A stretch of 64,000 nt of DNA from the NCBI GenBank assembly GCA_963666285.1, contig OY762711.1; one strand, 5' to 3'. The position numbers and the translations under genes were made by a program. Below are positions 36,331 through 55,820 of the stretch, piece by piece (within the stretch, counting starts at the first letter, position 1; every line of letters begins with the position of its first letter). The notes beneath the pieces are model-generated. The model worked only from the letters and a program-made list of their open reading frames with translations, was not told where the DNA came from and did not search any database. Origin of the DNA: Sedimentisphaerales bacterium. GTDB lineage: Bacteria > Planctomycetota > Phycisphaerae > Sedimentisphaerales > SM23-30.

Positions 36331-36403
<73 letters not shown>

Positions 36404-36409
36404 TTAAAT

Positions 36410-36448: not shown

Positions 36449-36624
36449 ACATTATCAGAATATAATAGAAACTTGGTGATAAACAGCCTTGATCCAAATA
36501 ATACTTTTACCGGCATATCATGTTATATTTCCCGGCCAGAAGACTTCTGCAATACTACTTTGTAAAGTTCTTACATCATTTCATCCTTCCGATCTATACA
36601 CGGTTTTATAGTGCATTATGAATT

Positions 36625-37929: not shown

Positions 37930-38005
37930 TTGACGCTCCTTCTTAATATCAATCTTAATACCATCAGCTATAACACTGAAAATCAAGCCATTGTTAAAAA
38001 TTTAA

Positions 38006-39196
38006 TTATAAAGCAGCTTTGAGCACATTGACAATATCGGCTTCCGTCATTGGCGGCAATGCCGGCAGATTGCCCTTGCCATCGTTAATTATACGCAAAG
38101 TTTCTTTAGCATAAGTTACAATCTTTTCATCGGTGATATCCAGCTCTGAAAAATGCGTAGGACAGCCAATTTGCCTTAAAAACTCTTCAAATTTATCTAT
38201 GCCGGCCATAGCACAATCAATATCATCCGGCCCTTTGGCTTCCAAACCAAAAATTCGTTCGGCAAACTGCACGAATTTAGCGGTATTGCTCTTCGCTGCA
38301 AAACGCATCCAGGAAGGATTGATAATTGCCAGGCCTGCGGCATGAGTAATATCATGAAATGCTGAAACCGTGTGTTCTATCATATGAACCGGAAAGCCGG
38401 CACTGCCAGACCCGGAGCCAATCCAGCCATTTAACGCTACTATTGAAGCCCATTGCACCTGGGACCGGGCTTCCAGGTCTTCACCGTTATCGATTGCTCT
38501 CACTCCATATTCCATTGCAGCTAAAATAGCCCCTTCTGCAAAACGGTCCTGAATCGGAGTATTGTCAGAACTATTAAGATATGATTCGGTAATATGTGTA
38601 ATAATATCACAAACTCCATAGGCGGTTTGATTTTTGGGCACACTCACTGTAAGTTCCGGGTCCACAACTGCTACTTTAGGATAAAGACAACCTGTACTCA
38701 TAAATGATTTTTCAGTTGTTTCCTCGTTAGAGATTACAGCGCCGCAATTCATTTCTGAACCAGTCGCGGCCAGGGTAGGAACGGTAATTATAGGTAACGC
38801 CGCAGTAGGCACATGCACTTTTTTCTGGCCATGGTATATCATGTCCCAGGGATCACCATCATATAATGCAGCGGCTGCTATAGCCTTTGAAGCATCCATT
38901 GTACTGCCTCCGCCAAGTGCAACAACCATGTCACATTTATTCTCACGTGCAATTGCCGCGCCGCGTCGAACAGATGAAATCTTAGGATTAGGTTCGACTC
39001 CATCACATTCAAATACTGCAATTCCGGCATTAGAAAGACTTTTAGCAAGTCGGTCGAATGTGCCATTACGCTTGACGCTGCCGCCACCGGTTACAACCAG
39101 GGCACTTTTGCCAAATTTGCTTGCCGCTTCACCAATTCGTTCCAAAGAACCGGCACCAAAAATTAAATGTGTTGGATTGTAATATTCAAAATTCAT
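38006..39196 (-). CDS. Iron-containing alcohol dehydrogenase (butanol dehydrogenase/YqhD-like)
   Basis: NFEYYNPTHLIFG, GVEPNP, GGGSTMDASK, TLAATGSE, HMIEH, HAAGLA. Confidence 0.92.
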   Translation of the reverse strand: MNFEYYNPTHLIFGAGSLERIGEAASKFGKSALVVTGGGSVKRNGTFDRLAKSLSNAGIAVFECDGVEPNPKISSVRRGAAIARENKCDMVVALGGGSTMDASKAIAAAALYDGDPWDMIYHGQKKVHVPTAALPIITVPTLAATGSEMNCGAVISNEETTEKSFMSTGCLYPKVAVVDPELTVSVPKNQTAYGVCDIITHITESYLNSSDNTPIQDRFAEGAILAAMEYGVRAIDNGEDLEARSQVQWASIVALNGWIGSGSGSAGFPVHMIEHTVSAFHDITHAAGLAIINPSWMRFAAKSNTAKFVQFAERIFGLEAKGPDDIDCAMAGIDKFEEFLRQIGCPTHFSELDITDEKIVTYAKETLRIINDGKGNLPALPPMTEADIVNVLKAAL

Positions 39197-39231
39197 AATT
39201 ATCATCTCCATTAAAATATATTTCATTATAA

Positions 39232-40266
39232 TTAATTATTCGTAGCCGCTTCATATTCAGCATCAGTTACAGGGCCAATCCATACAACATCATTTTCGCT
39301 CATCTTCGGCGTCATGCCGACATGTACAAATTCAGAATCAGGAGCAGCTCCATGCCAATGCTCAACAGCGGCAGGTATATTAACAACATCGCCAGGCGAA
39401 AGAAGTTGAGCCTCTTTTCCCCGTTCCTGGTAATAACCAAATCCGACAGTACACAGAAGAATCTGGCCAACATCATGTTTATGCCAATAAGTGCGGGCGG
39501 CCGGTCCAAACGTAACATTATAAACAGAAATATCACATTCTTTGTTATTTGTCAGGAACGCAAGCCATGCTTTGCCGGTAAAATTGTCATCCAGTTCTAT
39601 ATCTTTGGGAAATACATCCGGCAAATGTTCACTTCTGACTAACAACAAAATAGCACTTATCTGCTCATCCGTTAAACCATTGTTTTGACCTATTACTATA
39701 TGAGCATTTAGCTGACTCTCAACCCCGCCCATTGCCGCAAGCGCCGCAATGGTTGCCAGCTCTCGAGTCCGCCAGTCAAGAGTATCTCTGGCAAAGATAT
39801 CACCAAACAGATGCGACTTTAAATACTCATCAATTGCCGGGGCGAAATCAAATAGTTCACCTTTAACAGGAAAGCCGCATAGCTCTGTCTGATTTGCCGT
39901 GCCAAAATCGATACTTTTTCCCTCTGGCAGTGGGCCGGGGATCTCTCCTTCAGTATCAACAATGCCCTTTGCCTGGCGATCTTTCAATAATTCCATAAAA
40001 TTCTGCAATGCATTCAGGCTTCGAGGAAATCCACAGTATGTATATAACTGGGTAAGTACTTCTTTAATTTCGGAAACCGTTAGTCCGGCTTCCAATCCTT
40101 CGGCCAGGGCAGCATTAAGTTTTGCCATATCACCTCTTGCCGTATACATACTTATTGTTACTATCGTATTTTCTTTAACCGTAAGGTAATTCATTGTTTG
40201 TTTCTCCGCATAACTAATATCCCCCAATAAAAAGAGAATAATTATATAAATAATACTGTATTTCAT
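39232..40266 (-). CDS. Carboxymuconolactone decarboxylase-family (tandem CMD) + cupin fusion with signal peptide
   Basis: EIKEVLTQLYTYCGFPRSLNAL, HLFGDIFARDTLDWRTRELAT; cupin VTFGPAARTYWHKH...HWHGA. Confidence 0.85.
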   Translation of the reverse strand: MKYSIIYIIILFLLGDISYAEKQTMNYLTVKENTIVTISMYTARGDMAKLNAALAEGLEAGLTVSEIKEVLTQLYTYCGFPRSLNALQNFMELLKDRQAKGIVDTEGEIPGPLPEGKSIDFGTANQTELCGFPVKGELFDFAPAIDEYLKSHLFGDIFARDTLDWRTRELATIAALAAMGGVESQLNAHIVIGQNNGLTDEQISAILLLVRSEHLPDVFPKDIELDDNFTGKAWLAFLTNNKECDISVYNVTFGPAARTYWHKHDVGQILLCTVGFGYYQERGKEAQLLSPGDVVNIPAAVEHWHGAAPDSEFVHVGMTPKMSENDVVWIGPVTDAEYEAATNN

Positions 40267-40274
40267 GTCCTGAC

Positions 40275-40802
40275 CTATATATTTGTTGTTTTGTTTATAT
40301 CGATCCATTCTTTCAATTTAGTTTTATTATCACTCCGTCCGGAGCCATACAAAGCAATTGCCTGCCCAAAAATTGAACCCGGACACGCTTGCTGTATATC
40401 ATTTTCACAACGAGCCATTCCCCCTCCGCCATGAGTAATAAATGGGATAACTTTTTTCCCCTTCAAATCATGACTCACAAGAAAACTTAAAACCGGCGGC
40501 GCCATTGTATGCCACCAGTTTGGTGTACCAATATAAATAACCTCGTATTTACCAATATCTTTCAGCATACCTTCCAACTCCGGCTTAAAGTGATCAGCAC
40601 ATTCTTTTTTAGCTTGAGTCACACAGTCATTATATCCATCTGGATATGCTTTGACGGGCTTGATCTCAAAAACATTACCATTCGTAAGTTTCTCGATTTC
40701 TTCTGCCGCGAGCCTGGTATTACCGCTATGGGAAAAATAGGCTATCAATACTCCATTTTGCTTCACATCTGACAATTTATTTTCACTTGCTTTGAAATCC
40801 AT
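40275..40802 (-). CDS. Flavodoxin (Flavodoxin_4-like)
   Basis: AYFSHSGNT, IGTPNWW, PFITHGGGG. Confidence 0.9.
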   Translation of the reverse strand: MDFKASENKLSDVKQNGVLIAYFSHSGNTRLAAEEIEKLTNGNVFEIKPVKAYPDGYNDCVTQAKKECADHFKPELEGMLKDIGKYEVIYIGTPNWWHTMAPPVLSFLVSHDLKGKKVIPFITHGGGGMARCENDIQQACPGSIFGQAIALYGSGRSDNKTKLKEWIDINKTTNI

Positions 40803-40994
40803 TATGTCTTTTCCTTATTATAAGTACCCATATCTTCTATTATCTCACCTCATAAGTAGTATACGATATTAGAGCGGTAAAGTGGTATAACGATCCTATC
40901 TATTTCTTGCCTAAAAATACGAGGAAATGTATTTTTCTTGGTAAAATCAATAATTGATTATATAATTCATTAGAAAGGTTATAGGAGATTAAAC

Positions 40995-41927
40995 ATGGCA
41001 AACAACGAAAAACAAAGCACTTACAAAAAAAATAGTAACATCGACCACTATTTGGAGCTAAAAAACTTAATTGCACAATTAACCAGCAAAGGCGAATTAC
41101 ACACTACCTTAATACCGGAACTCTCATTATTTCGCCGAGACGAGCCAACCCAGATGGTTGCCAGCTTGTACGAACCGAGCATATGCCTGGTGATCCAGGG
41201 AGCAAAACGAGTATTCCTGGGAGATGAAACATATGAGTACAACACCTCCCGCTACTTGATAACCTCAGTAAATCTGCCCGCCACTGTACAGGTCATCGAA
41301 GCCAGCCCGGAAAAACCGTATCTCGGTCTAAAACTAAATCTTAACAGACATGAAATATCAAAGATGATGGTTAACTGCAACCTGCCTTCGCCGAAAGAAC
41401 AGAAGTCAAACCGCGGCATGGCAACCGGCGAATTAACACTCCCGCTACTGACATCTTTCCAAAGACTGGTTGACCTGCTGAACCATCCTGACGATATACC
41501 TATCCTCTCTCCATTGATCCAGAAAGAAATTATTTATCGCCTGCTGACCGGTGAACAAGGCACACGCCTGCGTCAGATCGCATCTGCCGGCAGCCAGAGC
41601 CATCATATGGCCACAGTTATCGATTGGCTCAATGACAATTTTAAGAAACAGATCACTATCGATGAATTAACAGACAAAGCGTGTATGAGCACATCAACCT
41701 TCCACCATCATTTCAAATCTATTACCGCTATGAGCCCACTGCAGTATATAAAAACATTAAGACTGCATGAAGCTCGCAGGTTAATGCTTATGGAGGATAT
41801 TGATGCCGCACACGCATCATTTCATGTAGGATATGACAGCCCTTCGCAGTTCAGCCGGGAATATAAACGACAGTTCGGCGAATCTCCGCAAAAAGACATT
41901 AAAAACCTCAGCAAGGAATTTAACTAG
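40995..41927 (+). CDS. AraC family transcriptional regulator (YqhC-like, AraC_N domain)
   Basis: YEPSICLVIQGAK, ASPEKPYL, MSPLQYIK..RLHEARRLM, VGYDSPSQFSREYKR; divergent from the flavodoxin/CMD/ADH operon. Confidence 0.93.
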   Translation: MANNEKQSTYKKNSNIDHYLELKNLIAQLTSKGELHTTLIPELSLFRRDEPTQMVASLYEPSICLVIQGAKRVFLGDETYEYNTSRYLITSVNLPATVQVIEASPEKPYLGLKLNLNRHEISKMMVNCNLPSPKEQKSNRGMATGELTLPLLTSFQRLVDLLNHPDDIPILSPLIQKEIIYRLLTGEQGTRLRQIASAGSQSHHMATVIDWLNDNFKKQITIDELTDKACMSTSTFHHHFKSITAMSPLQYIKTLRLHEARRLMLMEDIDAAHASFHVGYDSPSQFSREYKRQFGESPQKDIKNLSKEFN

Positions 41928-41976
41928 ACCTCTTTCCGATTATACTGATACTGAAATTACATTGTTGCAGCCAATA

Positions 41977-42002
41977 ACATTCCCAGGCATGCATTATATT
42001 TG
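41977..42002 (+). repeat. 26-bp exact direct repeat (module right-end sequence), copy 1
   Basis: ACATTCCCAGGCATGCATTATATTTG, identical to 56291-56316. Confidence 0.9.
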
Positions 42003-42033
42003 AATAAACTCAACGGTTAACATAAGCATAAAA

Positions 42034-43038
42034 TCACCGAGGTTCAATATACTTAATCAACTCTTCACATTTTGCATTACTAAAATCTAAATTACTGCTA
42101 ATTGAATATAAAGCATATAGTGACGGGTCAGTGAATGGCTTTTTCAAATCCAAAATATTCGACATGGTCGATATAATCCAACCACAAAGTATCCCCACCC
42201 ACATAGGCAAATAAATAGTTCTAAAATGTTTCTCAGGCATATACCGCTTCGCTATCATACGATAATAACCATCTATACTTACATTCTCCGACTCCAACAC
42301 ATTAAAGGCCTGACCATTGGCCTGGCAAAGCGAAACAGCAGCAAATATTGCTCGGGCTAGATAATCAACATGCACCAACGGCCAGCGATTTTTCCCTTTC
42401 CATTTACCAAAATGCAATATAATAGGACTTTTTCTAAGAAAATCAACCGTACGTTTGGTTAATGTTGGATCATCATCACCCCAAACCGCAGCAGGACGAA
42501 CTATACAATACTTATCCTTCGGCATATGTAATTCTATCCATTTTTCAGCAAGTATCTTATACTTCGGGTAAAAATTCTTCGCCTTATCATCAAAAGCAAG
42601 CTCTGACTCACCTTCTCCCGAAAAATCCCGCATGCCGTACACATCAGTTGTCGATATAAAGACAAACTTACCAACCTCGTTTTCCAGGCAGATTTTTACT
42701 AAATGCTGAATTGACTCATAGTTGGTTTTTCGAAAATGCACTTCCCTACCAACATCAGATGCACGCCCGGCACAATGCACAATTGCAGTTAACGGAACAT
42801 TAGCATCAGTCATACATTTTACAACCACTTCATGCATTGAATCATAGCTGCAAATGTCGCCAGACAATAAACTGACATTCCCTTTTCTTTCTAATCCATC
42901 AAGCCAGTCTGGAATATGCTGATGCGTTAACGCGTATACATACCAGCCGCGTTTAACAAACTCCAAAACAGCATGAGAACCAATAAAACCACCGGCACCA
43001 GTTACAAGCACAACCTTATCAGAACGTCTTCCAATCAC
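42034..43038 (-). CDS. NAD-dependent epimerase/dehydratase (extended SDR, 3-beta-HSD-like)
   Basis: VTGAGGFIG, VHCAG, ISTTDVYG, YPKYK (YxxxK), RPAAVWG. Confidence 0.88.
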   Translation of the reverse strand: MIGRRSDKVVLVTGAGGFIGSHAVLEFVKRGWYVYALTHQHIPDWLDGLERKGNVSLLSGDICSYDSMHEVVVKCMTDANVPLTAIVHCAGRASDVGREVHFRKTNYESIQHLVKICLENEVGKFVFISTTDVYGMRDFSGEGESELAFDDKAKNFYPKYKILAEKWIELHMPKDKYCIVRPAAVWGDDDPTLTKRTVDFLRKSPIILHFGKWKGKNRWPLVHVDYLARAIFAAVSLCQANGQAFNVLESENVSIDGYYRMIAKRYMPEKHFRTIYLPMWVGILCGWIISTMSNILDLKKPFTDPSLYALYSISSNLDFSNAKCEELIKYIEPR

Positions 43039-43039
43039 T

Positions 43040-44296
43040 TTAGATTACCCTGTATTTCTTACCTGTTTCAATAATAATATCGGCAGCTCTACTTAACTGC
43101 TCTTTACTAAAACTACTCATTACACATATTCGCACACGAGCTTCCTTGTGCCTTACTGCAGGATAACTAACTATATTTGTATACACACCATCCTCAAATA
43201 ATTGCCTGTGAAATAACGCTAATTTCTCATCATCTCCTATTATAAGAGGAATTATACCGGAATTGCTTACACCAATTTCAAATCCTGCTTTTTGCAGAAT
43301 AGCCTTAAGGAAATAAATGTTTTCCCAGAGCCTGCTACGACCAGCCTTATCTTCACTAAGTAATTTAAATACCTCGACAAGGCCTGCAGCAATTGGTGCA
43401 GGTAAAGCAGTAGAAAAGAAATACGAACGAACATAAATTCTCAAATAATCTATAATCTCTTTTTTACCCGCACAATACCCACCGAGACCAGCAGGAGCCT
43501 TACTTAACATACCCACATGCATATCCACTTTATCCATAACACCATAATACTCAGCAGTTCCCCTGCCGGTAGGGCCAACTACTCCTATGCCATGAGCATC
43601 ATCAACCATCAAACGACAACGATATTCTCCTGCCAGCTCTGCAATTTCATCCAGCCTGGCCATATCACCATGCATAGAAAAGACACCATCGGTAACAATA
43701 AGTTTACCGCCATTATTACTGTCGCATTTTTCCAATATACGCCTCAAACAGCGAATATTACCATGAGGATATATCTTTATTCCTGCCCCTGAAAGCATTG
43801 CCCCATCAAATATTGATGCATGATTAGCAGAATCGTTAATTATAATATCACTCTTGCCGCACATAGCTGATATTACGCCCACATTAGTACCATAACCAGA
43901 TGGAAATACAATCGCATCCTCAGAACTATAAAAGTCTGCTATCTGTCCCTCTAACTGCTCGTGCAAATCCGTCAGACCGGCATAAAGAGAAACTGCACCC
44001 ATACCATAACCATATTTATCTATCGCTTCTTTTGCGGCTTTGATTACAACTGGATGACTATTCAGATTAAGGTATGAATTAGAACCAAGCATATAGACTT
44101 CTCTCTTACCACCCTTCTGCTCAATTTCCACTTCCGGCCGAGCATACGAACTAACTACATGACCTAAACCATCAAGTAAACCTTCCGGAGTTTCTCTCAG
44201 GCACCTTGCCAGTTCATATGCCTTATAGAATATATCATTATTTGCCACTTCGACAAAATCTTCAAAACTTTTCTTTTCAACCGTAGTATTCTTCAT
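43040..44296 (-). CDS. Alpha-oxoamine synthase family PLP enzyme (serine palmitoyltransferase/BioF/Kbl-like)
   Basis: GSNSYL, SGYGTN, NHASI, DGVFSMHG, DDAHG, GMLSKA (PLP lysine), FSTALP, YPAV...ARVR. Confidence 0.9.
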   Translation of the reverse strand: MKNTTVEKKSFEDFVEVANNDIFYKAYELARCLRETPEGLLDGLGHVVSSYARPEVEIEQKGGKREVYMLGSNSYLNLNSHPVVIKAAKEAIDKYGYGMGAVSLYAGLTDLHEQLEGQIADFYSSEDAIVFPSGYGTNVGVISAMCGKSDIIINDSANHASIFDGAMLSGAGIKIYPHGNIRCLRRILEKCDSNNGGKLIVTDGVFSMHGDMARLDEIAELAGEYRCRLMVDDAHGIGVVGPTGRGTAEYYGVMDKVDMHVGMLSKAPAGLGGYCAGKKEIIDYLRIYVRSYFFSTALPAPIAAGLVEVFKLLSEDKAGRSRLWENIYFLKAILQKAGFEIGVSNSGIIPLIIGDDEKLALFHRQLFEDGVYTNIVSYPAVRHKEARVRICVMSSFSKEQLSRAADIIIETGKKYRVI

Positions 44297-44350
44297 TTAC
44301 ACACCTCTCAATCCTCAATCATTCCATCTAAAATATAATGTACACGGTAT

Positions 44351-45547
44351 TTACTGACAATAACATTGCAACATTGACTTGCTATCACAATTAACAGCAC
44401 ACAAATTACAATTTGTACATTTAGACTTTTTCCAATTATTTTCCGCAATTTTACTAACAATATCCGGCTCGCAGATAAACGGCCGACACATACTAATAAT
44501 CGGAAGCTTAAAATCATTAACAATCTTTTGAATACTTTCAAGCGACCGTATTCCGCCAACAGCAAATACCGGCATGGAAGTAGATTCACTAATTTCTCTG
44601 GCTGCTGCCAGGTTATAATTCTCACTAAATGGTATAAAATGTTGCAGATAACTTTTTAACCTGAATCTTCGCCACACAGCCCGGATAATACCTGGCATTT
44701 TATTAAACAAAGGATTTACTTCAAAGACTTTACCAACAGGACAACCTCCCCTGAAAATATTCATTGCATATTCCATCGTGCCATAGCTGATCTCAACAGC
44801 ATCTGCTAATCCCTCTAATTGCTTAACCGTTTGTATTGTATCGGAAACTCTTAGCCCTCTATCATCACTATGGCTTAATTTAACCAGCACCGGATAACTT
44901 TCATCACATCTTTCCTTTATTTTACGTAATATTTCACAAAGCAGTAAACTGCGTTTACCCCACCTGTCATTCCTGTTGTTAGTATAAGGCGACAAAAACT
45001 GGTGTATCAGATATCCGTGAGCTGCATGAACCTGAATACCATCAAAACCTGCAATCTTGGCTCGACTTGCAGCCCTGGCAAAATCATCGATTATGGCTGA
45101 GATTTCAGCATCTGCCAGCATTCTCACTTTTTGCCGAAAATAACTGCACCTTTTACTACCGGCCCCTACAACTCCACAATTACTCACACTACTTAATGTC
45201 TGCCGACCAGTGTGAGCAATCTGCATTATCATTTTAACCTCAGGATACTCCCGCTTAACTTCACTGATTACTTTTTGCCAGGCCGTACAATGTCCTTCCG
45301 AAGCAATTCCAGCCTGATACCGCTGCATAGCTCGCCCCTGCCGACTGACATAACAAAAACCTGTAGCAATCGCACCAACACCACCGGCAGAAAGTCGCTT
45401 ATACAAATCAGCAAGCTTCTGAGATACTATTCCATCACTATCTGCCATGCCCTCATAAGTGGCTGATCGCATAAAACGGTTATCAACAGTAAGACTACCA
45501 AGCTTAACCTGTGTAAATAATAATTCCTTATTTGAACACACGATCAA
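44351..45547 (-). CDS. NADH:flavin oxidoreductase (old yellow enzyme family)
   Basis: NRFMRSATYEG, QIAHTGRQ, GFDGIQVHAAHGYLIHQFLSP, VGGIRS, C-terminal CTNCNLC. Confidence 0.9.
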   Translation of the reverse strand: MIVCSNKELLFTQVKLGSLTVDNRFMRSATYEGMADSDGIVSQKLADLYKRLSAGGVGAIATGFCYVSRQGRAMQRYQAGIASEGHCTAWQKVISEVKREYPEVKMIMQIAHTGRQTLSSVSNCGVVGAGSKRCSYFRQKVRMLADAEISAIIDDFARAASRAKIAGFDGIQVHAAHGYLIHQFLSPYTNNRNDRWGKRSLLLCEILRKIKERCDESYPVLVKLSHSDDRGLRVSDTIQTVKQLEGLADAVEISYGTMEYAMNIFRGGCPVGKVFEVNPLFNKMPGIIRAVWRRFRLKSYLQHFIPFSENYNLAAAREISESTSMPVFAVGGIRSLESIQKIVNDFKLPIISMCRPFICEPDIVSKIAENNWKKSKCTNCNLCAVNCDSKSMLQCYCQ

Positions 45548-46490
45548 CCAACTCCAAAATCATGTTAATATATTCAGCCTTGTTAGTTATTTCTCTTGCA
45601 CAAGGCGGAATACTTTTAAGCTTTGAAAAATTACCGTTAGTATTAAAAAATATTCCATGATCGCTAGATTGTTTCACTCTTCCGATCCTGACTGAATCCA
45701 TTTCAGGCATCACCCCAACCGGTAAAGTAAACATCAACTCATATTCTCCAGCTCCGCCAAACAAAAATGCCTGCGGTGCGACCCCATTTTCTTTACAAAA
45801 TACCAATACTTCCTTATCAATGGGCAGTTCATCAGTCTGAATAGAAAATTCCAAATCAGGATTATTACCTGCAAGCGTCCATAATGAATCAATAAAACCA
45901 CCACTGGTATCAATACAACCCAATGCGTTTTTCCTGATATATTCGGCTTCGATCTTTCGCAATTCAAAAGCAGGAACCGGTTTCTCCAGCAAAGCTGCCA
46001 GGTTCGCATCACATAAACTTCCGGTAACCCATAACTCCTGCTCAATCAAAGGTAATTTTCGAGATAAATATTTCTCACCATCCAGCTCTCCAATAGCCGT
46101 TGCAGTATACCGCCAATTTGCGCCGAATCCCAGATCTCCACCTATAAGGCAGCACCCGGCATTCTCCAATACTCTACTAACCCCAACTGATAATTCGGTG
46201 GAAAATTCAACATTACCGCCCTTAGACAGCACAATTGCATGAATATAATATTTTGGAATTGCACCACAGGCATACAGATCGCTGAGAACAGCAATTGCCA
46301 TATTACTCCCTAACACAGCAGCCCCAGGATCGCCGAACATATCTTCATCGGAAAACTCATCCATTGTAACCGCAATATTGCCGCCAGATACTTTTACAAT
46401 TTCCGCATCACATTCAAAAGATTTATTCAGCTGATCATCACTGCGATCGAACTGGCCAAGTATATTCTCAATTATTGCTTGTTCACGCAT
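45528..46490 (-). CDS. Thiamine-monophosphate-kinase (ThiL)/AIR-synthase-like ATP-dependent enzyme
   Basis: AVTMD, LSDLYACGA, LIGGD, WVTGSL, CIDTSGG, GGAGEYELMFT resemble divergent ThiL motifs. Confidence 0.72.
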   Translation of the reverse strand: MREQAIIENILGQFDRSDDQLNKSFECDAEIVKVSGGNIAVTMDEFSDEDMFGDPGAAVLGSNMAIAVLSDLYACGAIPKYYIHAIVLSKGGNVEFSTELSVGVSRVLENAGCCLIGGDLGFGANWRYTATAIGELDGEKYLSRKLPLIEQELWVTGSLCDANLAALLEKPVPAFELRKIEAEYIRKNALGCIDTSGGFIDSLWTLAGNNPDLEFSIQTDELPIDKEVLVFCKENGVAPQAFLFGGAGEYELMFTLPVGVMPEMDSVRIGRVKQSSDHGIFFNTNGNFSKLKSIPPCAREITNKAEYINMILELVDRVFK

Positions 46491-47400
46491 ATTCTATCCC
46501 TAACAGTTCGATTGCCCCCGGAACGATTTTCGCTTTAACAGGTAAATACCCCTTACTATCTCCATCAAATTCAACCTTTACTGAACCTGACCCATACACT
46601 TCAAGTTTCACAAACTCACTTAACCAGAGTTTTCCTTCTACCTCCAGCTTCTTAAGCGTAAACAAATCTCCTTTATAAAACTCTGGCAGAAGTTTCAACA
46701 ACCCCATTTTCCCTTTTGCCATTATCGCTAAAACATAAGCTTTCCCATCATCAGCAGAGATATCCAAACCAACTTTAATGCCTGAAGCTATATATGGATT
46801 CTTTATTATCATTATGTGAATACATGATTTTAAACTCTGCTTTTCCCCATCAACCATTACATCCAGATCATGTGGCTTATTCACTAGCAATGCTTTTATC
46901 AAACCGAATAATGTACCAAGTCTGTCACCAAAATATTTCCTGTACTTATTAGAAAAATCTGCAACATCTGACCCTAAACCAATATTTGAACTGCAGCCAA
47001 AATACCCTGTTGCGGCTTTACCGCTTTTATCTTTATATTCAATCTGAACCAGGTCAATCTTACTGCTCCTTTCACTCAAAATCACATCCACAGCCTTACC
47101 TGGCTCAACAGGCAAATTATGAAATTTGCAGAAATCAGGACTTGTGCCAGAATATAAAACTCCCATAATGCGGTTCTTTTCTCTCTGCATCACACCATTT
47201 ATGACCTCATTTATCATCCCATCACCGCCAACCGCAACTGCAATTTCCTCATTTGCCGCGGCAATCTCTGTAGCATGCCCTGGATATTCCGTTTCCATCT
47301 GACCAAAATCAACTTTAGATTTTCGCAATCTATCCAACATCACCGGCCAGAGCTTTCTCCCTTTGCCGAATCTTGAATGTGAACACATTATAAGCAGCAT
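46483..47400 (-). CDS. Diacylglycerol/sphingosine kinase family (YegS/DgkB-like) lipid kinase
   Basis: ETEYPGHA, AVGGDGMINEVING, SGTSPDF, DDG, EFDGD. Confidence 0.85.
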   Translation of the reverse strand: MLLIMCSHSRFGKGRKLWPVMLDRLRKSKVDFGQMETEYPGHATEIAAANEEIAVAVGGDGMINEVINGVMQREKNRIMGVLYSGTSPDFCKFHNLPVEPGKAVDVILSERSSKIDLVQIEYKDKSGKAATGYFGCSSNIGLGSDVADFSNKYRKYFGDRLGTLFGLIKALLVNKPHDLDVMVDGEKQSLKSCIHIMIIKNPYIASGIKVGLDISADDGKAYVLAIMAKGKMGLLKLLPEFYKGDLFTLKKLEVEGKLWLSEFVKLEVYGSGSVKVEFDGDSKGYLPVKAKIVPGAIELLGIEYA

Positions 47401-48704
47401 TATTTCCCACCATTCATATTTCTACGGTATATCCCAAGTTTCTTATAAAGCTTAGTCTCCTTACCCCTATCCCATTTCCCAACCAATTCCCTGGTATATT
47501 TCCAGGGTACAGGAGTGTGTGTAAGACCATACTTTTCAACAAGCCCGGCAATCCCCTCAGCCTGGCTGCAGCAGAGCCAATCTTCACATGGATAAGGGAA
47601 ACAACTCCTCATACGATCAAAAACCTCATCAAAACCCTCTTCGACGATATTTCCAAATGAAATATTCAGGAATTCACATGGCTGCATTTCACCTGCGGCA
47701 TTAATATAGAATCTGTCAATTGCTCCGGCAGTACAACCAAGGCCATCTGGCCGTTCTTCAAACACCTGGGCAGCCAGGGCAGGAAACTCCTTTTTGCATG
47801 ATGAGTTATATTCTTTATGCTTATCTCGAACTGCCTCAATATGCCTTTTATGCTGAACAATATCTTTACCTGAAGCCAGCCACTTCCCTGCTGGTTTTGG
47901 ATGGATAAGCTGCACAAACTGAACATCAAGTTTTTTGGCAAGCTCCATCAACCTGTCCAACTTACCACAATCCAGCTGTTGGGCTGTTAAAACACTATTA
48001 ATTGCTATCACAAGCCCAAGTTCTCTTGCCATACCAATTGCGTTACATGCTGCATTAAAAGAACCTTCAACGCCGGTAAACAAATCATGCTCAACTGCAT
48101 CAGGTGAATGTATAGAAACCATCAGTCCAAAAAGTCCTTTACCCTGCAACTCCAGAAGTTGCTCCCTGCTCACTGACCTGCCATGAGTATTTACCCATAC
48201 CTCACTTTTGTCGTCAAAAACTTCTAAAAGCTTACTCAAACGGTCAAATAGCAAAAATGGCTCCCCACCTTCAATATCAAACATAGCTACACCCTTTTCA
48301 CGCAGCTTTATTGCGACTTGCTGAAGATGCTCAAGAGCAATATCATTACCTCCATCTTTTCGCTGATAACAATGTGGACAATGGAAATCGCATGCACGCG
48401 TCATACTGTAAACAATTGTTACCGGTCGTGCCGGGCTATGGATAAGCTTTGATTCGATTGCATGAAAGAAAGCACCGGTTGGATATGCTGGCAAATATAA
48501 ATGAATTTTATAACCACTGGGGACTTTCACAGGCTTATCCGGCCAGAAAGTTTTTAACAATATTGATGCACGCCATAAAAAACTGGGATATCTTTTGGGA
48601 TTAACCCTAAACATGTAGTAAAACATCACATGCAATGCTATTCGAACATATAGCATTAGTTTTGGCACCCCGGTTATTTGCCTGGTCTGGTTAGTATATT
48701 TCAT
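47400..48704 (-). CDS. Radical SAM enzyme with twitch/SPASM-like C-terminal domain
   Basis: CDFHCPHC (CxxxCxxC), EGGEP, GCTAG..RFYINAAGEMQPCEF, CEDWLCC. Confidence 0.9.
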   Translation of the reverse strand: MKYTNQTRQITGVPKLMLYVRIALHVMFYYMFRVNPKRYPSFLWRASILLKTFWPDKPVKVPSGYKIHLYLPAYPTGAFFHAIESKLIHSPARPVTIVYSMTRACDFHCPHCYQRKDGGNDIALEHLQQVAIKLREKGVAMFDIEGGEPFLLFDRLSKLLEVFDDKSEVWVNTHGRSVSREQLLELQGKGLFGLMVSIHSPDAVEHDLFTGVEGSFNAACNAIGMARELGLVIAINSVLTAQQLDCGKLDRLMELAKKLDVQFVQLIHPKPAGKWLASGKDIVQHKRHIEAVRDKHKEYNSSCKKEFPALAAQVFEERPDGLGCTAGAIDRFYINAAGEMQPCEFLNISFGNIVEEGFDEVFDRMRSCFPYPCEDWLCCSQAEGIAGLVEKYGLTHTPVPWKYTRELVGKWDRGKETKLYKKLGIYRRNMNGGK

Positions 48705-48707
48705 TTT

Positions 48708-49694
48708 CTACGCCTTCGTATCACCATAATGACTGAAGAAAAACTGGATCAATATATAACTTGCAATCATAAGATATAATGCCAGAGTCCCATCAAAAAT
48801 TGCTATCAGGGAAACCTGCCCAGCAACACATGCCTGTATATTTGTTACAAGACTGAAATACGTTTTTTGCCCGTACGGGTTAGTAAAAAACAGATATGCT
48901 GTCCAACATTGCAAAAACAATGTCACCAGACAGCAAAACAAAAATGTCTTCTGATACAGAATTGACTCCACTGGAAGCCAATCTATTGTTATAAAAAACA
49001 CTAATGCTATCGCTGATATAAATGCTCCAATAATCCCGGCATAGCGACCTATATTTATACCATACCGTACAATAAAAGTCTTTTTCCCCGCAGCTTTATC
49101 GCCTTGATAATCTTTGAAATATGTATAATACGTCATTACCGCATTTAATATTGCTACTAATATTAAACCTGTTATCCTGTTACTTGTGAAAAATGGGTCC
49201 AATAGCGGACCACACGCCAGGAAACCATACGCCGTACACATGGATATCATAATACCAAAAACAATATTTCCTGTCAGGCTCCACGCTTTTGCATATTCAT
49301 ATAAAACATTTAACAATATACCTAAAACTGCCGGAATAATTGCCCAGGGATTCAATAGCCAACTTATAAATATCATAAATATAAGAAAAAAAATAGTTAC
49401 TACTAATGCACATTTGGGATCCAACTCACCTGTCACCATAGGCCTGTTAGGAGCATTGATTTTATCTTCTTCCAATCCAAGATAATCATTAATGATCTGA
49501 TTAATTCCCCAGCTCAAAAAAAGCATAGCTAATATCAGCATCAGCCTTTCATTAGATACAGCTCCATCCACCTTAAAATTATAAAAAGACACACCCACCC
49601 AACCTGCTATCCCTGTAACAAAAGCATAGTATAATCGCATTGACTTTATGTACGCCTTTGTAAAACCCATAACTTTTTTCAATTCTAACTCCAT
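48708..49694 (-). CDS. UbiA-family membrane prenyltransferase
   Basis: NQIINDYLGLEEDKINAPNRPMVTG and FKDYQGDKAAGKKT motifs; multiple TM helices. Start at 49694 behind GAGG. Confidence 0.88.
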   Translation of the reverse strand: MELELKKVMGFTKAYIKSMRLYYAFVTGIAGWVGVSFYNFKVDGAVSNERLMLILAMLFLSWGINQIINDYLGLEEDKINAPNRPMVTGELDPKCALVVTIFFLIFMIFISWLLNPWAIIPAVLGILLNVLYEYAKAWSLTGNIVFGIMISMCTAYGFLACGPLLDPFFTSNRITGLILVAILNAVMTYYTYFKDYQGDKAAGKKTFIVRYGINIGRYAGIIGAFISAIALVFFITIDWLPVESILYQKTFLFCCLVTLFLQCWTAYLFFTNPYGQKTYFSLVTNIQACVAGQVSLIAIFDGTLALYLMIASYILIQFFFSHYGDTKA

Positions 49695-49749
49695 TTTTCT
49701 ATCCTCAAATTCCAAAAAACTCTCATAAAAACACCAAAATAATATCCAA

Positions 49750-50322
49750 CTATAGATTCAGTATGTTTTTATCCAACATTTTCTCTCTCATCGAATCACC
49801 AAAAAGCTCTAAGTGTTTGCCTATTGTTATCATTGTCCCAATCCCAATCAAACGCCATGCTGTCGATTCTGCAAAATCTGTAACATCCTGCTTATTATTC
49901 CCATAATAACTTAAAATCATATCAACCAGGTACCTGTGAATACGATTATACATTTCTTGCAGCACTTTTTTTATATCCGGCTCATCTACCTCATTTAAGC
50001 CGGAAAAGATAATCATATAATGCCCCAATTCGGCAAAATGGGTTGATTCATAATCAAACAGTACTTCAAGCGGCTTGTTCTCCTGAAGCGTTTTGGATAT
50101 TTGCCTTTCCCAAATCTCAAGAATATTATCCGTCAGATATTTCACAGAAGCGACAAACATTGCCTTTTTGTCTTCCCATAATCGATAAAGTATCGCTTCC
50201 TTCACCCCACATTCATTGGCAATCGCAGACGTAGTCGCACGGCGATATCCAAGACACGCAAAAGCCTTAGCCACTAATGGAAGCATTTCTTTACGCTTTT
50301 CATATCTTTTATCTGTTTTCAT
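49750..50322 (-). CDS. TetR/AcrR family transcriptional regulator
   Basis: FACLGYRRATTSAIANECGVKEAILYRLWEDKKAMF HTH. Confidence 0.92.
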   Translation of the reverse strand: MKTDKRYEKRKEMLPLVAKAFACLGYRRATTSAIANECGVKEAILYRLWEDKKAMFVASVKYLTDNILEIWERQISKTLQENKPLEVLFDYESTHFAELGHYMIIFSGLNEVDEPDIKKVLQEMYNRIHRYLVDMILSYYGNNKQDVTDFAESTAWRLIGIGTMITIGKHLELFGDSMREKMLDKNILNL

Positions 50323-50339
50323 TCTTAAATCCTCAAAAC

Positions 50340-50393
50340 GTTAGCAAACACTAACTGTTAGTAAATGCTAACACTATTATCAGCAGAATGCAA
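50340..50393 (-). promoter_or_regulatory. Tandem palindromic TetR operators overlapping a putative promoter
   Basis: GTTAGCAAACACTAAC (50340-50355) and GTTAGTAAATGCTAAC (50357-50372), both GTTAG-N6-CTAAC. Minus-strand TTGCAT-17-TAGCAT overlaps the second. Confidence 0.7.
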
Positions 50394-50544
50394 AATAATT
50401 CTCAAAAAAATATGAGAGAAACCACTACACTTATACTACACTTATGCGGCTGTGTTTAATGGTATTTACAGGCATATTACAAAACTGTTAACCGCTGTTA
50501 ATAGCATAACTTACAAGATTTAAACAGTTAGCTGGATGCACTCA

Positions 50545-50584
50545 GCATGCAAGAGGTCGTCGGTTCGTTCCCGATCGGCTCCAT
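50545..50584 (+). repeat. attR-like copy of the tRNA-Ala 3' half
   Basis: GCATGCAAGAGGTCGTCGGTTCGTTCCCGATCGGCTCCAT, 1 mismatch versus 36365-36404. Confidence 0.95.
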
Positions 50585-50590
50585 ATAACA

Positions 50591-50629
50591 AAAAACGCCC
50601 TACAGAATTATTAACTGTAAGGCGTTTTT
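50591..50629. terminator. Terminator-like hairpin after the attR copy
   Basis: AAAAACGCCCTACAG-AATTATTAA-CTGTAAGGCGTTTTT. Confidence 0.75.
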
Positions 50630-50782
50630 AATTGATACTTCCTAAACTACTCCTAATCAAAAGAATTACCATTACATAGCCATAATTATATAAAGAAAAT
50701 CATAATTGCCATAATACTGGTTATATTGCCGCACATCTTAAAAAAAAGTAAAATTACTATCTTCAACATCTTGCACTTGAGC

Positions 50783-51454
50783 TTATCTTTTGGTAGCTAA
50801 AGCAGCTTCTGCCACCCTTTGACCTAATTGAACAGCAGTTTTGATACCAAACTCATCCTTAGTAATATCATCATTGTAGGCATTAACCAGGGTGGCTCCC
50901 TGGTGAGCGCCAGGCTTTCCACCTACAATCATAGCTTCATGGCAAAGAAGTGCCGCTTGTATTTGCTGAATACCCATTTCCTGCCCGCCATTCCTATAAG
51001 CACCGACAGTCAATGCACCAACCGGCACATTGGCTAACTTCAGCTCAGGTTTTCGTAAAACCGCTATACGCTCTAAAAATGACATACAAACTGAACTGAT
51101 ATTCCGAAAATATATAGGAGAGCCAATTATCATGCCATCCGGGTATGGGTCTTTAAGTTTAGGCAGAACAAGATCTGTAAAATGATCTTGCTGAAATTTA
51201 CCAGTGCTGTTCCAGCCAGAGAAATACAATTCACCCAAATCTATCAATTCAACTTGAATCTGGTTTGATATTTTACTAGCCGCATCCAAGGCAACCTGCA
51301 CTGCTGTTGCAGTTGTCTTACCTTTTCTTGGACTGCAACTAATACCGACAATTCTAACCTTACCTTCTGTTTCATCTTTTGCCTGAGCTTGTGAAGCAAA
51401 CGCAACGACTCCACCAACAGCTGCACTTTTAGCTATAAAACTTCGTCTATCCAT
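50783..51454 (-). CDS. Tat-exported flavodoxin-fold NAD(P)H-dependent FMN reductase family protein
   Basis: MDRRSFIAK twin-arginine signal with AQA cleavage site; GISCSPRKGKTT, IGSPIYF, RNGGQE. Start 51454 behind AGGAG. Confidence 0.82.
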   Translation of the reverse strand: MDRRSFIAKSAAVGGVVAFASQAQAKDETEGKVRIVGISCSPRKGKTTATAVQVALDAASKISNQIQVELIDLGELYFSGWNSTGKFQQDHFTDLVLPKLKDPYPDGMIIGSPIYFRNISSVCMSFLERIAVLRKPELKLANVPVGALTVGAYRNGGQEMGIQQIQAALLCHEAMIVGGKPGAHQGATLVNAYNDDITKDEFGIKTAVQLGQRVAEAALATKR

Positions 51455-51487
51455 AATAATACTCCTGATGTAAAAATGATTATGCAA

Positions 51488-52186
51488 TTAAGGAGCTGTA
51501 TAAATCAGCCACACACCTCCTATAAGGACTAGAACACCACATATTTTCTTCAATATAACTGAACCTTTGGATTTATCATTCCAATTCATATACCGCTGAA
51601 CGATTTCAGTAAACGTTCCCGCAAAAATAATCACAGAACAATGCCCTACACCATAGGTAAATAATAAAAGAATACCATATGAGAGGTTAGTAGAAGAAAG
51701 CTTAAATGTTACACCAAGCATTGGAGCCATATATGCAAAAGTACACGGCCCAAGCGCAATTCCAAACACAAGACCAAGGATAAATGCAGCAAGCAACCCT
51801 TTCTTCTTCATACCTATCTGCCCTGGACCGGATAACGGAATATTTATGACTTCAAGCAGATGCAGCCCCACAACAAAGAATATCAATGCTACAAAATAAT
51901 TGCCATATTGACCTATATCACCCATCATCCTGCCAGCGGCGGCAGTTATTGCACCTATAGCACCGATTGTAATCAAAATCCCAACTGAAAACAGGGTTGA
52001 TATCCAGAAAGCCCGCCTGGTAGATATTCGACCCTGTTCATCAATAAATCCAATTATCAGTGGAATACTGGCAAGATGACACGGACTTAGTACAATGCTT
52101 AGCACACCCCATATAAAAGAGGCAAGCAATGCGATAAACCAGGCTCCTTCAACGGCATTTGTTAGCTCGGTAAATAATTCCTGCAT
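51488..52186 (-). CDS. ccdA: CcdA/DsbD-type transmembrane disulfide reductase
   Basis: LSPCHLASIPL and LGPCTF conserved Cys pair; about 6 TM helices. Confidence 0.88.
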   Translation of the reverse strand: MQELFTELTNAVEGAWFIALLASFIWGVLSIVLSPCHLASIPLIIGFIDEQGRISTRRAFWISTLFSVGILITIGAIGAITAAAGRMMGDIGQYGNYFVALIFFVVGLHLLEVINIPLSGPGQIGMKKKGLLAAFILGLVFGIALGPCTFAYMAPMLGVTFKLSSTNLSYGILLLFTYGVGHCSVIIFAGTFTEIVQRYMNWNDKSKGSVILKKICGVLVLIGGVWLIYTAP

Positions 52187-52187
52187 A

Positions 52188-53108
52188 CTATTTTATTTCC
52201 AAAACATCAATCTTATTAATAATATCTTCTTCTGTATAAAAACCACTATGCCGGAAAACTTCTTTTCCCATATCGTCAAAAATAATTTGTGTTGGTATTG
52301 ACTTTACTCCATACCTTGCCGACAAAACCTGTTGCTCTTTTGCATTAATATATACTATATTCAGCTGATCTTTATATTTATTTGTCAGTGCGTCACGTAT
52401 CGGAGCCATCTTATCCGGACCGCAACAGCTGGCAGCACTAAAAATAGCAATAGTAGCTTTCTCACTGCTTCTTGCCATATCCAGTAAATTATTTTGCGAG
52501 ATTAAGGCCTGCTCCTTAAGCCAATTACCTGCAATAGAAATATCATATTTAAGACCGATGTTCTTTATATATTCAGCAACAAGAGATAGCTTTTTTTCTT
52601 GCAAAACATAAGATTTAATTTGCTCTTTTACTGCTGACAGTGGTGTCCCATTAAACACACTGACGTTTTCTTCATAAAACTTTTCAACTTCCTGGTCATT
52701 AACAGAGGTGTCGGCAAGCATATTTTCCAAATAGGCAGATATACTATTATTATCATTTTTAGACTGTATGTTATTTTTAGCATTTTCTTCCAGGGCAATA
52801 TCAGCCAGGATCTGTTTACCTGCATACTGCTCGAGAACAAACAGTAAATTTTCTTCCAACTCTGCACGAACCAGGCCGGGTTGAGATGTGATATAGTCCT
52901 TCAAGTCCTTTTCATTAATCTCAATATTTTTATACTTCAGAATAGTTCCATTTTTCAGATCTAATATTTTAGCATAGGTCAAAACACCTGTAGTTAAACT
53001 GGGATATACTTCATTTACAATATTTGACTTAACCGTAACTCTTTCTGCTGCAATTGACAGACTCCCAATTAACAGGAATATAAACATATAATAGCAATTA
53101 GTTTTCAT
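52188..53108 (-). CDS. Secreted protein: SurA-N-like helical region + atypical thioredoxin domain
   Basis: Signal peptide; VNDQEVEKFYEEN..F...PLSAVKEQIKSY; C-terminal Trx fold FSAASCCGPD...YGVKSIPTQIIFDDMGKEVFRHSG. Confidence 0.72.
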   Translation of the reverse strand: MKTNCYYMFIFLLIGSLSIAAERVTVKSNIVNEVYPSLTTGVLTYAKILDLKNGTILKYKNIEINEKDLKDYITSQPGLVRAELEENLLFVLEQYAGKQILADIALEENAKNNIQSKNDNNSISAYLENMLADTSVNDQEVEKFYEENVSVFNGTPLSAVKEQIKSYVLQEKKLSLVAEYIKNIGLKYDISIAGNWLKEQALISQNNLLDMARSSEKATIAIFSAASCCGPDKMAPIRDALTNKYKDQLNIVYINAKEQQVLSARYGVKSIPTQIIFDDMGKEVFRHSGFYTEEDIINKIDVLEIK

Positions 53109-53538
53109 TTTTGTCGCCTTTCTCAGCATCAACTCCAAATTCTTTCCACTTACCTAAGATGTCTTCTTTTGAGAAAAATCCTTCATGCCTGAAAATCTCT
53201 TTTCCAGAGGCATCAATAAATATTTGTGTTGGGATCAGGTTTATACCATACTTCTCTTTTTCACCAGGATTTTCCCAGACATCAATAAAATTCACATTGA
53301 ATGAATCTTTACATTCCACCTTCAGCTCTTCCAGAATCGGAGCCATCATTTTACATGGAATGCATTTGCCTGCACCAAGATCAATTAGAGTTGGTAAGTC
53401 AGAATTGATATTGCCTGCAATTTGCTTTTCCTGGCCAGAGTCTGTAACAGGCAAATCTTTTTTGTCTTGCTTTGCCAAAAAAGCTATCGCCACTACTACC
53501 AACAAAGCTACTACAATAATTATATTGGTTTTTTTCAT
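53098..53538 (-). CDS. Membrane-anchored thioredoxin family protein
   Basis: N-terminal TM anchor; DLGAGKCIPCKMM, IPTQIF...GKEIFRHEG. Confidence 0.9.
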   Translation of the reverse strand: MKKTNIIIVVALLVVVAIAFLAKQDKKDLPVTDSGQEKQIAGNINSDLPTLIDLGAGKCIPCKMMAPILEELKVECKDSFNVNFIDVWENPGEKEKYGINLIPTQIFIDASGKEIFRHEGFFSKEDILGKWKEFGVDAEKGDKNEN

Positions 53539-53627
53539 TATTATAACTCCTTAAAAAATGCATTATCACAGAACAAATTCATACTGCCTCAGCAATTATC
53601 ATAATAGTATAAATCTGTTAAGCAATC

Positions 53628-54002
53628 TTATTGCAGCATTTCCTTTGCTTTAGAAACAACTTTTCCAACATTCTCTTCATTTGCAGGGCTATTGCCTTTT
53701 TCAAGGCCTAAATCTGCCAGCTGAAGATGATCAAACTTGCAGAAACCTGCCTGCTCTAAAGAATTTTTCACACAATTCAGAGGACAACCATCAATAGCCA
53801 GAACCTGCTCTGCCGCTTCAGTAGTTTTCATAATGCCACTGACACGTCCACCAATTCCAGCTAGACAGAACATTTTGCCGGAACCATCTTTGGTTAACTT
53901 TCGTGCTGCCTGATCCGACACCGCTCCTACATCGGCTGCTCCGGAGCAGGCGAAAATCAACTTTGTGCCACCGCTGCATACACATGATTTTTCTGTACTC
54001 AT
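53628..54002 (-). CDS. DGC-domain putative zinc-binding protein
   Basis: FACSGAADVG, MFCLAG, AIDGCPLNC. Confidence 0.88.
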   Translation of the reverse strand: MSTEKSCVCSGGTKLIFACSGAADVGAVSDQAARKLTKDGSGKMFCLAGIGGRVSGIMKTTEAAEQVLAIDGCPLNCVKNSLEQAGFCKFDHLQLADLGLEKGNSPANEENVGKVVSKAKEMLQ

Positions 54003-54043
54003 AACAATTCCTTTTTATCGTCTTAGAAAATTATCAATATTAA

Positions 54044-54277
54044 TTAAGCTAACATAGCCTTAATATCATCAGCAGACAATACTTTCCCTGCCGATTTAAC
54101 TTCACCATCAATTGCAATCGCAGGTGTTACCATTACACCCATTGCCATTATATCATTAAGTTGAGTTACCTTTTCAATCTCAGCCTCAATTCCAAGTTCA
54201 CTAACCGCAGCTTTTGCATTACCTGCAAGTTTTTCGCATTTGGCACATCCTGTACCTAGTATTTGTATTTTTTTCAT
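54044..54277 (-). CDS. Small redox-active disulfide protein (thioredoxin_3 family)
   Basis: KIQILGTGCAKC, GVMVTPAIAIDGEVKSAG. Start 54277 behind GGAG. Confidence 0.92.
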   Translation of the reverse strand: MKKIQILGTGCAKCEKLAGNAKAAVSELGIEAEIEKVTQLNDIMAMGVMVTPAIAIDGEVKSAGKVLSADDIKAMLA

Positions 54278-54290
54278 TGTTATTTCTCCA

Positions 54291-55763: not shown

Positions 55764-55779
55764 AATAATATCCTCACTG

Positions 55780-55800
55780 GGTTATTTGCACATATTACCA
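55780..55800. promoter_or_regulatory. Second putative ArsR operator upstream of the permease
   Basis: GGTTATTTGCACATATTACCA, 17/21 identical to 56156-56176. Confidence 0.5.
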
Positions 55801-55820
55801 AGTGTTATCCTAAAAAAAGA

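Follow-up and report, generated by a model that had tools for sequence, protein, structure and literature searches.

The window analyzed in this work, a stretch of 64,000 nucleotides from a Sedimentisphaerales bacterium (contig OY762711.1), carries an operon of seven enzyme genes behind a TetR-family regulator. They encode a UbiA-superfamily membrane enzyme, a radical S-adenosylmethionine (SAM) enzyme, a kinase of the diacylglycerol kinase (DAGK)/sphingosine kinase family, a ThiL-like protein, a flavoenzyme of the old yellow enzyme (OYE) type, an alpha-oxoamine synthase and an extended short-chain dehydrogenase/reductase (SDR). The seven genes form a conserved operon that recurs in anaerobic bacteria of many phyla. 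The reading that we favour, to which we give somewhat less than an even chance, is that this operon is responsible for a membrane lipid not yet described, built on a sphingoid base without the help of a ceramide synthase: a long-chain base would be converted to its 1-phosphate and then to its 1-diphosphate, and the UbiA and radical SAM enzymes would couple it to a partner. The replacement of the oxoamine synthase by an enzyme of the serine palmitoyltransferase (Spt) clade in one group of loci is the best evidence that a serine-derived sphingoid base would be the first product.

All eight open reading frames (the regulator and the seven enzymes) are intact on the minus strand, from 50322 down to 42034, and have no internal stops. 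The tight coupling described in an earlier note on this DNA was confirmed: the radical SAM and DAGK-family genes have one base in common (47400), the DAGK-family and ThiL-like genes overlap at 46483-46490 and, provided that the TTG start is used, the ThiL-like and OYE genes at 45528-45547. The synthase and SDR genes are separated by 1 bp (43039), the UbiA and radical SAM genes by 3 bp, and the OYE and synthase genes by 54 bp. The start of the UbiA gene is most likely the ATG at 49694, which gives a protein of 328 residues with an exact database match. The family names first given to the eight proteins agree with Pfam, with scores above the Pfam cut-offs; every NCBIfam model of named function scored below its own cut-off against the operon proteins. 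The twin operators proposed for the TetR regulator are also present, as two GTTAG-N6-CTAAC palindromes just downstream of a -35/-10 match (50405..50376), a consensus match only, of which five were found against 2.5 +/- 1.6 in shuffled sequences. Elsewhere in the 6.35-Mb genome, the palindrome occurs only as three other single copies; one copy lies between the TetR and UbiA genes of a relative (L006), and the regulators vary among carriers (TetR, MarR and XRE-type helix-turn-helix proteins). The features of the operon are the following:

50376..50405, minus strand: sigma-70-like promoter match (10/12, consensus only), directly upstream of the operators
50340-50355 and 50357-50372, no strand: twin palindromic operators, GTTAG-N6-CTAAC each
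49750..50322, minus strand: TetR-family regulator, 190 aa (Pfam family)
48708..49694, minus strand: membrane enzyme of the UbiA superfamily, 328 aa; its uncharacterised subfamily lies closest to digeranylgeranylglyceryl phosphate (DGGGP) synthase and chlorophyll synthase
47400..48704, minus strand: radical SAM enzyme, 434 aa, with a twitch/SPASM-like domain; fused to UbiA in two lineages
46483..47400, minus strand: DAGK/sphingosine-kinase-family kinase, 305 aa (Pfam family)
45528..46490, minus strand: ThiL-like enzyme of the PurM fold, 320 aa; predicted lipid-monophosphate kinase
44351..45547, minus strand: OYE-type flavoenzyme, 398 aa, with a C-terminal Cys cluster; dispensable, putative tailoring step
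43040..44296, minus strand: alpha-oxoamine synthase, 418 aa, in its own clade (type A); predicted long-chain-base synthase
42034..43038, minus strand: extended SDR, 334 aa, of the 3-beta-HSD/epimerase type; predicted 3-keto reductase

Distribution and layouts of the operon

For the survey, 256 UbiA relatives were confirmed in GTDB genomes and 80 stretches were fetched, and 75 metagenome loci were obtained with the ThiL-like protein as the query. In 53 of the genome loci, UbiA is followed by 7.2 kb of sequence or more; the gene order of the window is found in 26 of these, this order without OYE in 3 and the type B set in 21, while 3 are decayed. The co-occurrence of these genes beyond the window, on which the earlier note had made its proposal depend, is thus widespread, and it takes three layouts. 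Type A, which is the order of the window, was found in records named Planctomycetota, Lentisphaeria, Kiritimatiellia, Elusimicrobia, Armatimonadota and Sumerlaeia. Type B has the order UbiA, OYE, acyl carrier protein, oxoamine synthase, kinase, ThiL-like, ketosynthase, SDR and radical SAM, and hence adds a carrier protein (23 loci) and a ketosynthase (21 loci) of its own; its hosts are Desulfosporosinus, Petroclostridium, Omnitrophota, Cloacimonas and a Bacteroidetes metagenome-assembled genome (MAG), and they include the named isolates Desulfosporosinus hippei DSM 8344, D. lacus DSM 15449 and Petroclostridium sp. X23. In type C, an Spt-clade synthase is coupled to UbiA and the type A synthase is missing. 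Between the window and type B, protein identity is 53% for UbiA, 40% for OYE, 35% for the radical SAM enzyme, 34% for the kinase, 33% for the ThiL-like protein, 30% for the synthase and 20% for the SDR.

The cluster is rare: it was present in 9 of the 251 genomes of one phylum sample, the centre included (12 matched, 3 of them through a distant paralogue), and in 2 of 301 Bacillota-side genomes; the radical SAM enzyme was matched in 35 of 251 genomes of one order. Neither a prenyl synthase or other isoprenoid gene nor a transporter recurs beside it, and a search of 72,556 plasmids at E 1e-20 returned no close UbiA homologue. The OYE, originally taken as a modifying enzyme of the route, proved to be dispensable. 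In the 86 type A loci that hold both flanking genes (some of them near-duplicates), it is full-length in 70, absent from 11 and short in 5, and it is absent from the divergent type A and the type C loci; the minimal set is six functions, OYE not among them. A ferredoxin-nitroreductase gene follows the SDR gene in the OYE-less loci L211 (6126-6941), L214, L216, L233, L236 and L245, where it may replace OYE, and is missing from others. Decayed copies (L054, L067, L079 and L216) have lost the synthase and SDR, show internal deletions or retain only UbiA and OYE, and in L234, L245 and L246 gaps of ~1.3-1.5 kb, possibly insertion elements, split the type C operon between the kinase and ThiL-like genes.

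The enzymes and their nearest relatives

At locus L214, the type A synthase is gone from its slot and another oxoamine synthase gene shares 8 bases with the start of UbiA. A closely related radical SAM enzyme is present in 26 more genomes; of the 15 that were fetched, 13 had an L214-like layout and 2 no oxoamine synthase in the stretch. This type C synthase is 51-54% identical to a Bacteroidota Spt that scores over the Spt cut-off, has the Spt serine in its substrate loop and is sister to three such enzymes (support 97/94) within the Spt clade (100/99); a single clade of types A and C is rejected (p-AU 7e-6). Besides, the type C radical SAM enzyme nests inside divergent type A, on three starred branches of a quick tree rooted on a paralogue. 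The trees indicate that an Spt-clade enzyme displaced the type A synthase while the other five genes stayed, type C having arisen inside type A. The simplest reading of this replacement is that the two enzymes would have much the same kind of product, a 3-keto long-chain base derived from serine, and the sphingoid-like front end suggested in the earlier note gains comparative support from it.

The window synthase keeps His159, Asp232, His235 and Lys266 in 97 of 97 aligned sequences. It was supposed not to be a BioF or Kbl enzyme, and indeed the clades are separate and its scores against the Kbl/BioF models are below the cut-offs (366 of 460, 314 of 493 and 339 of 426 bits); the genome holds its own Kbl-clade gene and BioF-side genes. 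With Kbl it shares the valine of the substrate loop (Val102), but neither clade nor score. This position varies (V, P, T, S) among the cluster synthases while the later enzymes stay conserved. According to PMC11906848, all Kbl enzymes have valine here and Spt has serine, and ThAOS, which bears the valine, accepts glycine, alanine and also serine; a glycine substrate, which was our first reading of the valine gatekeeper, was demoted after the Spt swap. The type A and type B synthases are 30% identical and fall in separate clades, which may point to independent origins, but a single clade of both is not rejected (p-AU 0.134); the type B synthase is a long branch. Kinship with PigH was also considered. 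PigH-like proteins of prodigiosin-type clusters are the best plasmid matches of the window synthase (40-42% over 97% of its length) and group with it and three other enzymes at 86/84 in one tree, yet this link is unresolved in a second tree. The prodiginine synthases PigH/RedN and RedL share an N-terminal extension with it, and serine use is known in PigH, but the operon has no fused carrier domains and no PigC/PigJ-type genes. Prodigiosin-type clusters were seen on plasmids of Methylocystis iwaonis and Thioclava (L175 1-19221 and L184 1-19227), and conjugative Bacteroides plasmids carry an orphan oxoamine synthase with a TetR gene (L186 5929-7889) outside the Spt, Kbl and BioF clades.

The SDR keeps Ser129, Tyr157 and Lys161 in 59-60 of 60 type A sequences. 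On a plasmid of Rubrobacter radiotolerans, the genes for an Spt-clade enzyme, a GNAT-like protein and an SDR follow one another (L185 5941-9308), as in ceramide loci; the match of this SDR with its type B counterpart has E 6e-29 and that with the window SDR 1e-11 (~26% identity). In the OYE, His174, His177 and Tyr179 are kept in 99 of 99 sequences and Cys377/380/383 in 97 of 99.

Of the two kinases, the DAGK-family enzyme has an intact GGDG motif. In the window copy, position 62 is Met and in 113 of 114 aligned sequences Thr (T62M), and the usual Asn-Pro near the start is missing, a change partly common to L006 and L009. In bacteria, ceramide and dihydrosphingosine are reported substrates of DAGK-family enzymes (bioRxiv 10.1101/2023.05.01.538943). 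By score, the ThiL-like protein lies nearer to ThiL (95 bits) than to PurM (36 bits), HypE or SelD, and ThiL provides its closest solved structures. It has the PurM fold, and its Asp28/44/71/119/194, kept in 121 of 121 sequences, align with the ATP- and metal-binding aspartates of the genome's ThiL. The earlier note had assumed that it is not a plain thiamine monophosphate (TMP) kinase, and this is supported by its score against TIGR01379 (103.9 bits, cut-off 184.15) and by the separate gene of the same genome that scores 233.5: it is a paralogue of a true ThiL, which has a gene of its own in the window's genome and in 4 of the 5 further carrier genomes. Unlike in ThiL, the C-terminal tail is replaced by ~30 other residues and there is a new invariant acidic pair at 49-50, which could bind an amine. 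In ThiL this tail is described as ordered only with thiamine ligands, TMP or thiamine diphosphate (PMC6416309). The ThiL-like gene is kept in every intact layout.

The nearest characterised relatives of the UbiA enzyme, DGGGP synthase and chlorophyll synthase (ChlG/BchG), both alkylate an oxygen; it scores 46-74 bits against cut-offs of 212-353, and 63.6-74.1 bits against the DGGGP synthase models, with cut-offs of 269-353. Five aspartates (D66, D70, D180, D183 and D187) are reported as essential in archaeal DGGGP synthase (PMC9385802). Compared with that enzyme (PDB 6M31) and ChlG/BchG, the operon UbiA keeps Asn69, Asp77, Asp195, Asp199 and the Tyr/Lys motif. Three of the five essential aspartates are kept, whereas Gly73 and Tyr192 take the places of Asp66 and Asp180 in 105 of 105 type A and B sequences. 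The loss of these two aspartates would fit a non-standard donor. No geranylgeranylglyceryl phosphate synthase was seen among the recurrent neighbours, a result that covers these neighbours and no genome-wide search. Further UbiA subfamilies at ~20% identity (P0447, P0449, P0454, P0466, P0491 and P0485) share parts of the altered motifs, and P0485 has two UbiA domains.

The radical SAM enzyme keeps Cys105/109/112 (CxxxCxxC) and the auxiliary Cys324/343/378 in 101 of 101 sequences. No named family reaches its cut-off, the PDB matches are distant (SkfB, 2e-8), and the ESM Atlas returned only generic radical SAM and UbiA clusters. The earlier note had placed it with the amino-alcohol half of the pathway; natural fusions in two lineages tie it instead to UbiA, with which it forms single chains in two protein clusters, P0398 (739 aa) and P0415 (721 aa). 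One such fusion (locus L211) heads a complete operon in genome G497.

The known bacterial ceramide route consists of Spt, the ceramide synthase bCerS and the reductase CerR (PMC11087976). As claimed at the outset, a GNAT-type ceramide synthase appears to be absent: a proxy GNAT query found no homologue in 8 of 8 carrier genomes (that of the window, five of types A and C and two of type B), several of which are incomplete MAGs, but it found homologues in 3 of 3 Spt-bearing Bacteroidota control genomes, one of them adjoining spt. With the ceramide pathway of Caulobacter and Bacteroidota, including its kinase CpgB, the operon shares an oxoamine synthase, an epimerase-fold reductase and a DAGK-family kinase; type B also has a dedicated carrier protein and type C an Spt-clade enzyme. 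In contrast, no bCerS-like GNAT was found with it, it adds the ThiL-fold enzyme, UbiA and the radical SAM enzyme, and the window synthase lies outside the Spt clade, to which, by tree only, the type C enzyme belongs.

The predicted pathway and competing explanations

We infer the chemistry of the route from the operon itself, its conservation, the Spt replacement, the UbiA-radical SAM fusion and the motif changes. From L-serine and a long-chain acyl thioester, the oxoamine synthase would form a 3-keto base by condensation, which the SDR would reduce to a sphinganine-type amino alcohol, with OYE as an optional step of chain saturation. The DAGK-family kinase would then phosphorylate C1, the ThiL-like enzyme would add a second phosphate, and UbiA with its radical SAM partner would displace the diphosphate at the membrane and attach C1, through oxygen or nitrogen, to another lipid or to a head group. 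As activated molecule, we favour the operon's own alcohol because cells already make prenyl diphosphates, whereas here two kinases in series accompany a diphosphate consumer. In the two-step salvage of prenols, a phytol kinase and a phytyl-phosphate kinase convert an alcohol to its phosphate and diphosphate for a UbiA-type enzyme; these kinases belong to other families than those of the operon. The activation logic is the same, but the operon appears to make the alcohol itself.

Several observations weigh against this pathway. The window synthase forms its own clade (100/99) apart from Spt, Kbl, BioF and ALAS and scores 339.7 bits against the Spt model, with a cut-off of 640; even the type C enzyme, with 499 bits, is below it. 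Val102 is kept in 120 of 120 close homologues of the window synthase, and the type B enzyme has threonine in the loop in 22 of 22 sequences. What the swap shows is acceptance of the Spt product by the later enzymes, not use of serine by types A and B. By our own chemical reasoning, a primary non-allylic diphosphate ionises poorly and would be a poor donor unless assisted by the C2 amine or by the radical enzyme. UbiA position 73 varies in the wider, more distant family, and the ceramide synthase search relied on one proxy query, whose identity was taken from its place beside an Spt-clade gene. The window copy itself may be weakened by T62M in the kinase and G160C in the ThiL-like protein, the latter at a Gly kept in 121 of 121 sequences; its UbiA breaks 5 of 105 conserved columns (median 1), and this copy, with all frames intact, may be under relaxed selection.

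An alternative with the same sphingoid front end, which we consider unlikely, makes the base 1-phosphate the acceptor and lets UbiA add a housekeeping polyprenyl chain to its amine or hydroxyl. The base 1-phosphate would mimic geranylgeranylglyceryl phosphate (phosphate on C1, nucleophile on C2, chain on C3), DGGGP synthase and chlorophyll synthase are the nearest characterised relatives, allylic donors are the rule in the UbiA family, and its enzymes are reported to cluster by acceptor structure (PMC9385802). Yet the cluster has no recurrent isoprenoid gene next to it, and two aspartates on the donor side are altered. The ThiL-like enzyme, which no intact layout lacks, would not be needed in this scheme; it would make a pyrophosphate head group or recycle prenyl phosphate. 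It is still less probable that types A and B use glycine or alanine and give a 1-deoxy(methyl) amino alcohol or a short aminoketone, with phosphorylation of a secondary hydroxyl and a product that differs by layout. The valine at position 102 is that of all Kbl enzymes and the type B threonine is ALAS-like (PMC11906848), and 1-deoxyceramides are reported as common in euxinic waters (PMC11334938); however, the valine-bearing ThAOS is described as also turning over serine (PMC11906848), the loop position is variable whereas the later enzymes are conserved, and an Spt-clade enzyme replaced the type A synthase within one lineage.

The poor donor would be avoided in a prodiginine-like pyrrole route, in which a beta-ketoacyl thioester and serine cyclise to a hydroxymethyl-pyrrole whose diphosphate would be easily ionised and would suit UbiA. 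The PigH/RedL chemistry is described (PMC11188435), PigH-like proteins are the best plasmid matches and type B has a ketosynthase and a carrier protein, but we regard this route as very improbable: the PigH link is found in one tree (86/84) and unresolved in the other, types A and C have neither ketosynthase nor carrier domain, and an Spt-clade enzyme can fill the slot. The least probable of the explanations weighed here is salvage or detoxification, with the kinases and UbiA capturing outside alcohols (phytol, prenols or host sphingoid bases) under a ligand-sensing TetR or MarR regulator. Several copies are led by such regulators, the distribution is patchy with decaying copies, and two-kinase prenol salvage has been described in other organisms; nevertheless, nearly all intact copies either retain the oxoamine synthase, an irreversible and biosynthetic enzyme, or have another in its place, and no transporter recurs.

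Our literature search, with most subscription papers and supplements outside its reach, brought up no description of this gene set; where it was aimed at the genes themselves, it returned one review on archaeal lipids and nothing else. The genes suggest a sphingoid pathway whose second half would be without precedent. The fullest version of the favoured pathway, in which anaerobes would make sphingolipids with two or three tails independently of a ceramide synthase and the first lipid diphosphate made by a ThiL fold would be a non-isoprenoid donor for a UbiA fused to a radical SAM enzyme, we hold to be doubtful, though a real prospect. If true, it would add new reactions to three families: a ThiL-fold lipid kinase, a UbiA with a non-isoprenoid substrate and a membrane-coupled radical SAM enzyme. 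According to PMC11334938 and PMC12619533, hundreds of sphingolipid structures from anoxic waters and sediments have no known producer or pathway, and the Black Sea has many Spt-like genes without bCerS or CerR nearby; the operon offers a concrete candidate for a sphingolipid pathway that continues in another way. Orphan 1-O-acyl ceramides with a C28-32 chain on C1 are reported to make up 7.3% of the lipids of anoxic Black Sea sediment (PMC12619533). With a fatty-acid carboxylate as acceptor, which is the case in chlorophyll synthase, the operon would create a 1-O-acyl ester, the linkage of these ceramides; that the product matches them, their long chain arising from radical coupling of two C14-16 chains, is a guess and an improbable one. 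The three interchangeable synthases provide a built-in control series, and the type B isolates make the favoured pathway directly testable.

Genomic setting of the window's copy

Two further features bracket 14.2 kb that include the operon:

36331..36403, plus strand: tRNA-Ala(GGC); an integrated segment of 14.2 kb probably has its left end here
50545..50583, plus strand: 39-bp copy of the 3' part of this tRNA (97% identity), attR-like

The operon had been called island-borne, a description that stands in part: the pair of tRNA repeats and the absence from relatives favour it, whereas the lack of an integrase and the composition do not. The window's UbiA was found in none of 300 other genomes of the class, two genomes of the same genus among them; in same-genus genomes, the tRNA and its upstream gene are conserved but the downstream DNA is different. 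On the other side, no integrase was found among the open reading frames between the repeats, and the composition of the segment is ordinary (GC 0.396 against 0.412, with 120 of 300 random windows equally deviant). The segment is probably an old insertion rather than a demonstrated mobile element. Its junction cannot be fixed from the relatives because they have no common gene order downstream of the tRNA. Among the sequencing runs listed as holding this DNA, none was of RNA. Contigs of one sequencing study span 36366-53000 unbroken, but they are not independent support since this study may be the source sample.

The other cargo between the repeats (36625-41927) comprises a PQQ-type beta-propeller protein, an iron alcohol dehydrogenase, a CMD-cupin protein, a flavodoxin and an AraC regulator, and part of this block matches another site in the same-genus genome G273 at 65-72%. 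Just beyond the right repeat, the minus strand at 50783-56141 encodes, by sequence reading, a flavin reductase, CcdA-like and thioredoxin-like proteins, a permease and an ArsR-type regulator. To the left of the tRNA, a single open reading frame of 4483 codons (20972-34423, minus strand) probably specifies a large secreted or surface protein. Finally, the small contigs C2-C4 of G000 are nearly equal in length (65,573, 65,644 and 66,550 bases) and may be versions of one replicon.

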